Assembly: GCA_963804645.1 (NCBI GenBank)
Contig: CAWDRG010000019.1
Coordinates: 160,001 to 224,000, forward strand
Source: an uncultured Bacillota bacterium
GTDB taxonomy: Bacteria > Sysuimicrobiota > Sysuimicrobiia > Sysuimicrobiales > Segetimicrobiaceae
Direction of reading: 5' to 3'
DNA: 64,000 nucleotides
Below are positions 60,324 to 64,000 of this stretch, piece by piece (the first letter of the stretch is position 1; every line of letters starts with the position of its first letter). The position numbers and the translations under genes were made by a program. The notes under the pieces are model-generated. The model had not been told where the DNA came from and searched no databases. It was given only the letters and a program-made list of their open reading frames with translations.

Positions 60324-60415
60324 GAACATCCTTTCTGGGTCGAGCCCGCTATTGTGTAGTTAGACGATCACGCACAGGCTTAGTGCAAGCGAGATGAATT
60401 GGCTTGAGCATTATG

Positions 60416-60664
60416 TAGTACTGGGTAGTACTGGGTAGTACTGGGTAGTACTGGGTAGTACTGGGTAGTACTGGGTAGTACTGGGTAGTACTGGGTAGTA
60501 CTGGGTAGTACTGGGTAGTACTGGGTAGTACTGGGAGTACTGGGTAGTACTGGGTAGTACTGGGTAGTACTGGGTAGTACTGGGTAGTACTGGGTAGTAC
60601 TGGGTAGTACTGGGTAGTACTGGGTAGTACTGGGTAGTACTGGGTAGTACTGGGTAGTACTGGG
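60416..60664. repeat. tandem array of TAGTACTGGG, 25 units
   Basis: 12 perfect units, one 9-bp unit (AGTACTGGG, 60536-60544), 12 perfect units; no spacers. Confidence 0.97.
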
Positions 60665-60674
60665 GGAGTGGATC

Positions 60675-61013
60675 ATGCACGCGACATCGAAGTTTCGGAT
60701 GGCAGTCAGCGTTGTAATAGGGATTTGCCTCGTACTATGGGGCATTCCCCTCGCGGGTCAAGCGCAGGAAGTTCGGTCAATCACGCGCACTCAGGGGATA
60801 CTTGCCTCCGTAAATCTTGCAGGCATGACGGCAACGCTCCACACGTCCGCCGGACAGCGCGTGTTCACACTGACGTCGGTGACCGTGGTGCGTGTTGGTG
60901 AGGAGTTGGAGTTCCTAGATTCACTGCCGCCGTTTGTCGGTGCTGCGGCGATTGTGCTGTCGACTGACGTTGACGGTACCCAGGTTGCAGGGCGTGTGGA
61001 TATTTTGGTCTGA
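60675..61013 (+). pseudogene. secreted protein (DUF5666-like beta domain), 5' part, truncated by IS3
   Basis: Signal peptide ending 'AGQA'; the TGA stop is the first 3 nt of the IS3 IR; the frame resumes at 63772. Confidence 0.7.
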
Positions 61014-61043
61014 AGTTGCCCCGGTTTCGTGGAGGGTACAACG

Positions 61044-61956
61044 CTAGGCTACCACGGGCTGGTTAGCGCACCTCCTTTCGTACTCCGCCGGAGAGAGGTA
61101 CTCGAGGGCAGAGTGGCGCCGATGTGGGTTGTACCAACCTTCGATGAAGTCGAACAGTGCCCGCCGCGCATCACCGCGGCTGATAAACGTGTGCCGGATG
61201 AGTAGCTCGGTCTCCAAGGTCGCGAAAAACGCTTCCGCAAGCGCATTGTCATACGCGTCGCCGGCGCTGCCCATGGAGGGGACGACGCCCGCATCCTGAC
61301 ATCGCCGTCCGAAGGCAAGGCTCGTGTACTGCGTTCCGTGGTCCGAGTGGTGCACCACGCCCGCCGCGGGGCGGCGATTCCACAGCGCCATGTTCAACGC
61401 ATCGAGCACGAGCGTGGTGTCCAGCGCGTGACTCATGGCCCATCCCACCACGCGCCGACTGAACGCATCCAGCACCACGGCAACATACAACCAGCCCAGC
61501 CCCGTCCGCACGTACGTGATATCGGCGACCCAGAGCTGGTTCGGCGCGGCCGCAGCGAACTTCCGGCGGACCAGGTCGGGCGCCAGTGTGGCCTCCCGAT
61601 CGCGGACGGTCGTCTGTGGTCGCCGACGCCGATGGGCCCCTACAAGTGTGGCCGCGCGCATCAGACGAGCGACCCGTTTGCGCCCGCAGCGTACCCCGCG
61701 CGCCCGCAGCTCGGCATGGACGCGCGGCGCGCCGTACGTGTGACGACTGAACGTGTAGATCGCCTGAATCTGGTCCTGGAGGACACCGTCCGCCTGAACC
61801 CGGGCCGATGGCGGGCGATGGTGCCAGGCGTAGAACCCGCTGGGGGAGACACCCAGGACTCGACACATAGTGGCGATAGGGGCCGTGGCCTTCTCTCGCT
61901 TTACGAATTCGAACGCTGCGACGGCGTCCGGGTCTCCTGCGCGAAGAAGGCGGCCG
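61044..61956 (-). pseudogene. IS3 transposase OrfB (DDE), separated from OrfA
   Basis: 'YGAPRV', 'WVADITY', 'LDAFSRRVVGW', 'HSDHG.QY', 'DNALAEAFF..LE.E', 'YN..RRHS'. Confidence 0.93.
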
Positions 61957-61982
61957 CTACCCTGTAATTGGTCGTCGCGTGT

Positions 61983-63203
61983 CTACGCTGGGGACTCCTC
62001 CAGTGACACCTTGTACCCGAGCGCTTCCAACCGTTTGACCGCTCGGCGAGCGATGGTGGCCCGAGGGCGCCGGTCGAAGTGGGTAGGGCCGAGGTCCTGG
62101 TAGATCGTGCCCGTTTTGAGCATGTGGTACATGCTGACCAGGATCGCATGCGCAACGGCCAGTGCCGCCCGCTTCTTCCCACGGCGTCCGGCCAGCCGAT
62201 GAAAGAGCGCGCCCAGATACGTGTTCTTCGTCCGGGCCGCCGCATGCGCGGCTTCGACGAGCGCGGTCCGGACATACGGGTTCCCATGCCGGGTCTGACC
62301 ACTCCGGCGCTTCCCGGCGCTTTCGTCGCTCCCGGGACAGACGCCGGCCCAGGACGCCAGGTGCGCTGCGTCGGGGAACCGGGTCATGTCCGTGCCGATC
62401 TCGGCCAGCACGTCTTCCGCAATCCGCCGGCCGATGCCGGGAATCATATCCACGACCTGCAGCGCCGGTTCGTCCGCCTGCATCCGCTCCGCAATCGCGA
62501 GCACGAGGCGCTCGATCATGGCCTCCAATGCCTCGAGGTGTTCCAGTTGCAGCGCGAGCAGCATCTGCTGGTGCGGGCCGACCACACCTTGGAGCGCCCC
62601 TTGGAGGGCCGCGCGCTTGCTCCGCAGCCGTCCGCGCGCCAATTCCGCGATCACCGCTGGATCCGTCTCCCCGTGAATCAGCGCCTGCAACATGGCCCGC
62701 CCTGACTTGTTGACAACGCTGCTGGTAACATCGCCCAGCTTGATGTTCGCACCCTCCAGTACCTTCTGGATGCGATTGACCTCGCGCGCGCGCTCCTCGA
62801 TCACCGCCCGACGATAGCGCACCAGTTCACGCAGTTCGCGCTGGGGCCGGGCGGGAATGAAGCTGCCGCGCAGTAGTCCATGCCGAAGCAGATCGGTGAT
62901 CCACTCGGCGTCCTTGACGTCTGTCTTCCGCCCCGGGACCGCCTTGATCGCCTGCGCATTGACCACCAGTAGCTGTAGGCCCGTGGCCTCGAGCAGGTTG
63001 TAGATGGGCTTCCAGTACACCCCGGTGCTCTCCATCGCCACGTGCGTACATCCCGTTGCCTGCACCCATTCGGCCAGCGCCACCAGCTCTGCCGTGATCG
63101 TGCCAAAGGTCCGGAGCTCCTTCCCGGTCGGTGTGATGGCACACGCCACCACGGACTTCTTGTGCACGTCCAACCCACAGCAGTGCGAGTACAAGACCTC
63201 CAT
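61983..63203 (-). CDS. IS110-family recombinase (DEDD plus Tnp domain)
   Basis: 'GLDVHK', 'MESTG.YW', 'KTDVKDA', 'IPGIG', 'ESAGK'; GGAGG SD before ATG 63203. Confidence 0.96.
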
Positions 63204-63219
63204 CCGCCCCACCTCCCTG

Positions 63220-63420
63220 GGCGCCTCGGGGCGGTAACCGTGCGGGGAAGAGTCTACCCTGCGTGCTTCCCGAATGGGAGCAACATTTTGTGGTGCCAGA
63301 CGGTTACCGGGGTCAGACTTTTTTGCGGGCTCGCGGCACCAAGCGGCGTCGGCCTCAGCTCCACCGGGGCGCTCGGGTTCCCAGTTCCCCGACGGCCACT
63401 TTCATCCTTTCGCTGGTGCC
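63220..63420 (-). ncRNA. candidate IS110 bridge RNA in the upstream non-coding end (limits approximate)
   Basis: Contains GCCGCU (63347-63342) and AAAAAAG (63324-63318) matching both target flanks plus core, and CAGGGUAG (63261-63254) matching the element end plus core. Confidence 0.75.
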
Positions 63421-63442
63421 GCACACTACGCGGCATGCCGGA

Positions 63443-63701
63443 CTTTTTTCAGGATTTCTCGCTCTTCCCGTAAGACCCGATTCTCGCGGCGGAGGCGACG
63501 GAGCTCGTCGCGTTCCTCGGTGGTCAATCCGTCCGTGCGCCGTCCGGTATCGAGATCCGCTTGCCGGACCCAGTTCCGCAACGATTGATCAGCGATCCCG
63601 AGATCTTTGGCGATCTGCCCGATCGACTTCCCCGACTCTCGGACCAGCCGCACAGCTTCCTCCCGATACGCTCGCGGGTAGGCCGGGCGAGTCTTCCCCA
63701 T
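63443..63701 (-). pseudogene. IS3 transposase OrfA (HTH), interrupted at the AAAAAAG frameshift site
   Basis: 'Y..AYREEAVRLV', 'IAKDLGI...SLRNWV', 'ELRRLRREN..LREEREILKK'. Confidence 0.93.
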
Positions 63702-63771
63702 CGTGGACCTCCTTCGTGGGGCTTCCGGCCCCAACGATAGACTGTCCACGAAACCGGGTCAACTTCAGGTC

Positions 63772-63960
63772 TTCCCTGCGGCTGGGACTGTGGGAGTGAA
63801 CGCAGGCGGGAACACCGGCCATGAGGGCGTCTCGGGTAGCGCCGGCGGGTCAGGCGGTGTCGGGCCCTGTTCGGAGTGCGGGAGCGCGGCGGGAACAGGT
63901 CCCGGTGGAGCCGGTGGCGGCGGCAACGGCGGCAGCCATGAGAGTGGCGGGCAGCGATGA
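63772..63960 (+). pseudogene. orphaned Gly-rich 3' part of the gene starting at 60675
   Basis: In frame across the GGTC TSD: '...DILV|FPAAGTVGVNAGG...GPCSECG...GGQR*'. Confidence 0.7.
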
Positions 63961-64000
63961 GGGCGGGCGGTAACGAGCGGTGCGGGTCGCTCGGGGAACG

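Follow-up and report, generated by a model that had tools for sequence, protein, structure and literature searches.

Bridge RNAs are already known in the IS110 family of insertion sequences (IS), as is the habit of these elements of targeting repeats or other mobile elements (Durrant et al. 2024, PMC11208160; Hiraizumi et al. 2024, PMC11208158). In IS621, as these two papers describe it, the left target is matched in sense by the 5′ strand of the bridge RNA, and the 3′ strand carries the antisense of the right target; the RNA also has a handshake guide of two bases, and the CT core lies on the RNA-sense strand. The elements IS621, ISPpu9 and ISPpu10, which target repetitive extragenic palindromic (REP) sequences, aim at short recurring sequences (PMC11208160), and IS4321/IS5075 and the IS1111-attC elements, all of the IS1111 group, are cited in the same paper as having fixed targets in transposon terminal repeats or integron attC sites. 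Here we describe an IS110-family element that lies in a ribosomal frameshift site of an IS3-family element. Both are found in a 64,000-nucleotide stretch of DNA (the window, in which positions are counted unless another contig is named) from an uncultured Bacillota bacterium of the Segetimicrobiaceae (assembly GCA_963804645.1, contig CAWDRG010000019.1). It is very probable, judging from the sequence comparisons below, that a bridge RNA encoded in its left end guided this IS110-group element into the sole AAAAA-AG-CGGC of the genome, which lies in the slip run of the IS3, and that the IS3 was thereby disabled.

Like IS4321/IS5075 and the IS1111-attC elements, as far as these are described in the cited source, the present element is an IS110-family member with a target inside another mobile element. 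Those elements carry their guide RNA in the right end and have long subterminal repeats, unlike the present one, and their targets are recombination sites or ends, whereas the target here is a translational recoding site in a transposase gene. A short target of a recurring kind is also what the REP-targeting elements use; REP sequences, however, are described as reaching hundreds of copies per genome, whereas no second perfect copy of the present target exists in this genome. Limited look-ups in the literature, which included 10.64898/2026.08.14.744561, returned no account of an IS110 that targets the frameshift site of an IS3. We regard the case as a known mechanism with an interesting choice of target, and not as a new mechanism.

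The element proper occupies 61959-63442 on the minus strand and is 1,484 bp long, or 1,486 bp with one copy of its AG core. This 2-bp core is present at both junctions, at 61957-61958 on the right (CT on the plus strand) and at 63443-63444 on the left, and there is no other insertion scar. The minus-strand sequence is CCTGAAAAA-AG followed by TCCGGC at the left junction and CAGGGT-AG followed by CGGCCGCC at the right one. The two IS3 halves abut with neither gap nor overlap in at least four intact IS3 relatives of related genomes (L193, L195, L200 and L201); in the first two, 1768 is the last position of the left half and 1769 the first of the right half. Metagenome runs, examined as assembled contigs, provide the corresponding empty site. 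A 187-nt contig from run X12 joins 61956 to 63443, skipping 1,486 bases, and the two bases at the joint fit either side. Because this contig differs from the host IS3 at 12 positions, it is a relative whose site is empty and not an excision product of the present strain.

The recombinase gene (61983-63203, minus strand) encodes a protein of 406 amino acids with the domains DEDD_Tnp_IS110 (PF01548, at 4.6e-38) and Transposase_20 (PF02371, at 7.7e-23). It scores 276 bits against NF033542, "IS110 family RNA-guided transposase" (cut-off 140), and a putative D12, E58, D95-x-x-D98 pattern is visible in its sequence. The non-coding left end is long (239 nt) and the right end is short (24 nt, 61959-61982 on the minus strand), and the two ends have no terminal inverted repeats. 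The right end finishes in AATTAC-AGGGT before the core, where the family consensus is ATTTTC-N5-core. The element is an intact member of the IS110 family, in the IS110 group, and is ordinary apart from its landing place and from the departures of its clade from the IS621 layout. In one contig of depth 5 (run X1), an 11-base insertion, TACCCTGTAAT, stands behind 61957 (61957-61969) and repeats the last bases of the IS110 right end beside the core, which could be either real heterogeneity or an assembly artefact. On contig C11 of the same genome (12543-16566), an IS110 relative, 55-57% identical, is found in two pieces about 2.8 kb apart.

The host IS3-family element spans 61011-63767 on the minus strand (HTH_Tnp_1, rve, NF033516). 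It measures 1,271 bp after removal of the IS110 and is otherwise complete. Its features are those by which IS3 elements are recognized. The terminal inverted repeats (61011-61036 and 63742-63767) start with TG and are identical at 23 of 26 positions, and the element is flanked on both sides by the 4-bp direct repeat GGTC (61007-61010 and 63768-63771). OrfA (63426-63701, minus strand), with the helix-turn-helix domain HTH_Tnp_1, is in frame 0 and covers positions 2-79 of the NF033516 profile; OrfB (61044-61958, minus strand), with the rve integrase core, is in frame −1 and covers positions 90-369; and the two overlap in an A-rich segment. This segment holds the A6G run GAAAAAAG of the frameshift window (63443-63451, minus strand), which lies at the left junction of the IS110, provides the left copy of the AG core with its last two bases, and is found in the same window of intact relatives.

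IS3 itself slips on A_AAA_G. At the present site the OrfA codons are CTG AAA AAA GCG and OrfB goes on in the −1 frame from the last A, and the predicted in-frame slippery word is A_AAA_G or G_AAA_AAA. OrfA is native as far as 63445 and then runs into six codons of the IS110 (KKVRHAA, stop). With OrfA given a short foreign tail and OrfB stranded behind the insertion, the IS3 would no longer be able to make the fused transposase. A first-pass annotation of the window had placed the element at 61957-63444, an interval that includes both core copies, with a duplicated AG core and an insertion site in the A6G heptamer, and had proposed that it splits OrfA from OrfB. These points are all borne out, the last of them by the reading frames; the heptamer is present as a string, but the in-frame word A-AAA-AAG that had been assigned to it is not the one found. 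The sole sigma-70-like promoter site in 61900-63800 lies in the left inverted repeat of the IS3 (63734-63762, minus strand; 9 of 12 matches, a consensus match only) and reads to OrfA and on into the IS110. The IS110 thus sits downstream of this promoter-like site in the same orientation, and read-through could supply both its RNA and its recombinase.

We then considered whether the left end encodes a bridge RNA. Since the fold of the single left-end sequence was no better than that of shuffled sequences (z = 0.58), comparative folding was used. The homologue set comprises the best 80 genome loci and 78 metagenome loci (158 in all, protein identity 41-69%), with left ends aligned from their first base; 117 of the 145 aligned elements could be parsed for guides, and the other 28 have no recognizable upper hairpin. 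RNAalifold on 50 homologue left ends gives two modules, each consisting of a lower stem, a 5′ strand, a stem-loop and a 3′ strand. Compensatory changes are found at 20 of the 25 predicted pairs in this fold, which has four main helices. The proportion of paired cells is 92.1%, compared with 33-42%, and never more than 41.7%, when the partners are slid by 1-3 columns, and there are 206 doubly changed cells versus 64 in shuffles; no measure of the observed fold was reached by any of 500 shuffles. In the present element, on the minus strand, the first module would form a target-binding loop (63311-63354) with a lower stem at 63354-63351/63314-63311, a 5′ strand at 63350-63342, an upper hairpin at 63341-63326 and a 3′ strand at 63325-63315. 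The second would form a donor-binding loop (63232-63309) with a lower stem at 63309-63302/63239-63232, a 5′ strand at 63301-63282, an upper hairpin at 63281-63265 and a 3′ strand at 63264-63240. These results indicate that the 239-nt left end encodes a predicted two-loop bridge RNA.

Three guides can be read in the predicted loops, all on the minus strand. The left-flank guide AAAAAAGUC (63316-63324) combines five bases of left target flank with the AG core and with the two bases that open the left end, the latter being a handshake-type extension. The 3′ strand of the target loop, CAAAAAAG-UC, accordingly repeats the left flank, the AG core and the two opening bases of the element, and its AAAAAAG (63324-63318) gives a flank-plus-core match of 5 + 2 bases. 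The right-flank guide GCCGCU (63342-63347) is the complement of the core and the first four bases of the right target flank, a match of 2 + 4 bases. The two target guides together spell the 11-bp word AAAAA-AG-CGGC. The donor guide CAGGGUAG (63254-63261), in the donor loop, corresponds to the last six bases of the right end and the core. AAAAAAG itself occurs only 61 times on both strands of this 5.3-Mb genome.

It is also evident that these guide positions follow the flanks or the right ends of the elements that carry them. Among 57 non-redundant elements, the left-flank guide matches its own flank at 4.5 of 6 bases but the flanks of other elements at only 1.5 of 6, and at least 4 of 6 own-flank matches are seen in 51 of the 57 elements, compared with 4.1% of mismatched pairs. 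In the column tests of this guide, 25-37 of 43 identities were found (z = 4.5-7.9). The two extension bases covary with bases 3-4 of the left end, with mutual-information z-scores of 25 and 22. For the right-flank guide, at least four contiguous matches are present in 17 of 52 elements versus 4.1% of mismatched pairs, and the six contiguous matches of the present element are reached by 0.5% of mismatched pairs. The right-flank signal is weaker than the left-flank signal, partly owing to the variable length of the strand; it was detected by an anchored test, and in the column test it amounts to a single column of z = 3.6. In 69 of 117 elements the donor-guide 7-mer recurs downstream of the stop codon, and in 43 of those 69 the adjoining hexamer, which was not part of the search, is ATTTTC.

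Because the positions of the three motif matches covary with the flanks of the homologues, the matches exceed what chance would produce. The first-pass annotation had pointed to the same three motifs (63324-63318, 63347-63342 and 63261-63254), read them as two target guides and one donor guide in a left-end bridge RNA, and predicted that the guide segments would covary with the target sites across homologues. The family-wide covariation of the fold and of the flanks agrees with it on each of these points: the motifs lie on family positions that track the element's own flanks or right end. In 10 of 58 non-redundant homologues (e.g., L041, L043, L089, L154, L171 and L184) the left target flank reads TTTC-N5-core, a register that is present at 52 of 56 right ends in the clade. 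Such homologues appear to sit directly behind right-end-like sequence, possibly that of a sister element or a tandem copy.

The layout can be compared with that of IS621 as the two papers describe it. The two share a recombinase with a DEDD and a Tnp domain, a long left end encoding an RNA of two stem/guide/stem-loop/guide modules, guides that each take in the 2-bp core, with each DNA flank served by a single guide and the guides on opposite strands, a handshake-type extension by which two bases read the partner DNA, and a scarless insertion with the core at both junctions. In contrast to IS621 as described, the two guide sides have changed places and AG is the core on the RNA-sense strand, and the 406-amino-acid recombinase is distant from that of IS621. 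On the DNA strand opposite to the gene of the recombinase, the layout of the present clade becomes IS621-like by the papers' description, with a CT core and a two-base extension. The mirrored guide order and the AG core hold for 63354-63232 and for the homologue loci L033-L190.

A further difference from the published description of IS621 is that a guide with complementarity to the terminus of the left end could not be detected in the present clade. A guide complementary to the core and the left-end terminus was not found in this element, nor in 43 elements inspected by eye and by substring search, nor in 77 elements by mutual information, and positions 5-9 of the left end show no covariation with any RNA column in the 77 elements. 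The fourth guide, which had been reported missing in the earlier reading of this element, is therefore absent in its canonical form throughout the clade. Its expected place is taken by the donor-loop 5′ strand GGCACCACAAAAUG (63284-63297, minus strand), which has no match to the left-end terminus. Instead, 63297-63284 resembles, in the same sense, a subterminal left-end segment, GGCACCAGCGAAAGG (63420-63406, minus strand; left-end positions 25-39), just past the terminal hairpin, and the two covary across the clade. In 56 non-redundant elements, the local alignment score of the donor-loop 5′ strand against the subterminal segment is 6.96 for own pairs versus 4.96 for others, with a reverse-complement control of 3.73, and scores of at least 8 are reached in 20 of the 56 elements versus 5.0% of mismatched pairs. 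About 40 nt into the left end there is also GAUGAAAG (63406-63399; family consensus ATGAAAAT); its reverse complement is the conserved ATTTTC(A) beside the right-end guide (61970-61964), and the two make up a subterminal inverted repeat that is asymmetric. Right-end positions −10 and −11 find their complement in columns 46-47 (z = 4.5).

These observations suggest the following course of events. The left-end bridge RNA would guide the recombinase, with the 3′ strand of the target loop reading the left flank, the core and the first two element bases, and the 5′ strand complementing the core and the right flank. The 3′ strand of the donor loop would read the right end of the element together with the core. 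Recombination may then have taken place at the only AAAAA-AG-CGGC of the genome, in the run of A where ribosomes translating the IS3 would slip from OrfA to OrfB, and the outcome would be a foreign tail on OrfA, a stranded OrfB and the end of the fused transposase. That the RNA is produced, and that the element is inserted by way of a circular form, is what we infer from this arrangement.

Several results weigh against this account, in addition to the missing fourth guide. No further copy of the element was found in this genome, in 61 relatives or in 94 genomes of the phylum, and the 158 homologue loci include none that exceeds 66% protein identity. An Rfam scan of 60900-64000 with E up to 1 gave no match, no RNA run containing the stretch is among the sequencing runs listed, and no sigma-70-like site is found in the IS110 left end. 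Others bear on whether the IS3 is a habitual target. The 11-mer AAAAA-AG-CGGC has no other occurrence in this 5.3-Mb assembly of 68.6% G+C, so that the single IS110 copy has no further perfect target in its genome. None of nine intact IS3 relatives carries the exact 11-mer (none of seven without the unpublished genomes G034 and G086), because their alanine codon is GCC and not GCG. In 94 genomes of the class there are 19 exact 11-mers, none of them in an IS3 (17, again none in an IS3, without G086), and the 11-mer is no commoner than a reversed control word with about 33 occurrences (hand tally, 94 genomes). Finally, tblastn with IS3 proteins found IS3 flanks at none of the 80 genome loci and none of the 78 metagenome loci of the homologues.

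A second copy of the element is the evidence for a repeated use of IS3. A 2,602-nt contig of metagenome run X7 contains an IS110 copy with 50 differences over 1,564 bases (about 97% identical), which is flanked by the same 8 + 2 + 13 bases, a site of 23 bp. Of the next 24 bases of its right flank, 12 match the host IS3 and 23 match an IS3 relative on contig C15 (counted by eye). Within 63 bases the OrfA flank differs at 5 positions or more (about 8%), and it then falls below 90% identity, whereas the IS110 itself has diverged by about 3%. The left junction of this variant recurs in a contig from a different study (run X5). As the flank is more diverged than the IS110, the X7 copy suggests a second insertion, in a different IS3 lineage. 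Repeated use of IS3 slip sites by this IS110 lineage is thus partly supported, by one further copy in a different IS3 lineage. The IS3 relative on contig C15 (237800-243200, L010) is the only other one in the present genome; it is about 70% identical and keeps the OrfA-OrfB overlap, without the 11-mer. It is broken downstream by an insertion of about 2.8 kb, whose 704-amino-acid protein looks like a large serine recombinase by sequence.

It is possible, though less likely than not, that the event was a single one, in which this IS3 happened by chance to offer the 11-bp word and the lineage has no habitual tie to IS3 or to frameshift sites. The exact 11-mers of the class that all lie outside IS3, the GCC codon of all nine intact relatives, the homologues without IS3 flanks and the single copy in the genome would all be expected in that case. 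What it does not readily accommodate is the 97% copy of X7 at an identical 23-bp site, among IS3 flanks far more diverged than the IS110, nor the empty site in a third IS3 variant (run X12). Moreover, A-rich words are rare at 68.6% G+C, and the slip sites of IS3 elements supply them repeatedly. Somewhat more doubtful, and put forward here as a tentative proposal, is the opposite extreme, that the lineage is a specialist parasite of IS3. The bridge RNA of such a parasite would stay tuned to a word made of the A run and the alanine codon, and the element would insert behind the IS3 promoter, in the sense orientation, and disable its host. It would combine this with the mirrored layout of its clade, in which the fourth strand may read the subterminal left-end segment instead of the terminus, a way of recognizing the donor that is not described for IS621.

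A single ancestral insertion is a rather unlikely source of both copies. Under this explanation IS3 and IS110 would have travelled together as a composite, and the X7 copy may go back to that one insertion, its flanks having been acquired later by recombination or gene conversion between IS3 elements. The immediate 8 + 2 + 13 flanking bases are indeed identical, the evidence consists of contigs, and the X7 contig begins only 37 bases past the IS110 right end. The divergence of the flank, from about 8% in the first 63 bases to more than 10% in the rest of OrfA, is however well above the roughly 3% of the IS110; a disabled IS3 cannot move itself, and no other close IS3 copy is present here to help. 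That the motif matches are coincidental, and the left end a mere leader or promoter region with no guide RNA, is extremely improbable: the lack of an RNA run and of an Rfam match and the unremarkable single-sequence fold would fit it, but structure covariation and flank tracking in dozens of homologues already contradict it, and NCBIfam names the protein family RNA-guided.

For the preferred reading, a guided insertion into the slip run of the IS3, the aim at an IS3 motif that the first-pass annotation had proposed receives support from the near-identical copy at the same site of another IS3 lineage, and loses some from the variable alanine codon, the 11-mers outside IS3 and the homologues that are not in IS3. 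Insertion flanks of other copies, which had been put forward as the check, give the same divided answer: the X7 copy shares the exact site, and none of the 158 homologue loci is in an IS3. A self-multiplying safe site, as had been envisaged, is not visible in this genome, with one copy and no further perfect target, and the motif is less constrained at the DNA level than had been assumed, given the alanine codon of the intact relatives. Just outside the IS3, the minus-strand frames at 60380-60745 contain a 10-residue unit, PSTTQYYPVL, in perfect tandem repetition, from which a 30-bp tandem repeat in the DNA can be deduced.

The guides of a bridge RNA can here be read from natural sequence alone, and they predict the insertion site to the base. 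The locus is also a clear instance of an insertion sequence put out of action by another one at a site of translational recoding. The swapped guide order and the odd fourth strand bear on how far the design rules derived from IS621 reach for reprogrammable bridge recombinases. If the preference for IS3 is true, it would extend the IS110 habit of living in mobile DNA to a new kind of target, and would represent a natural case of RNA-guided conflict between transposons.

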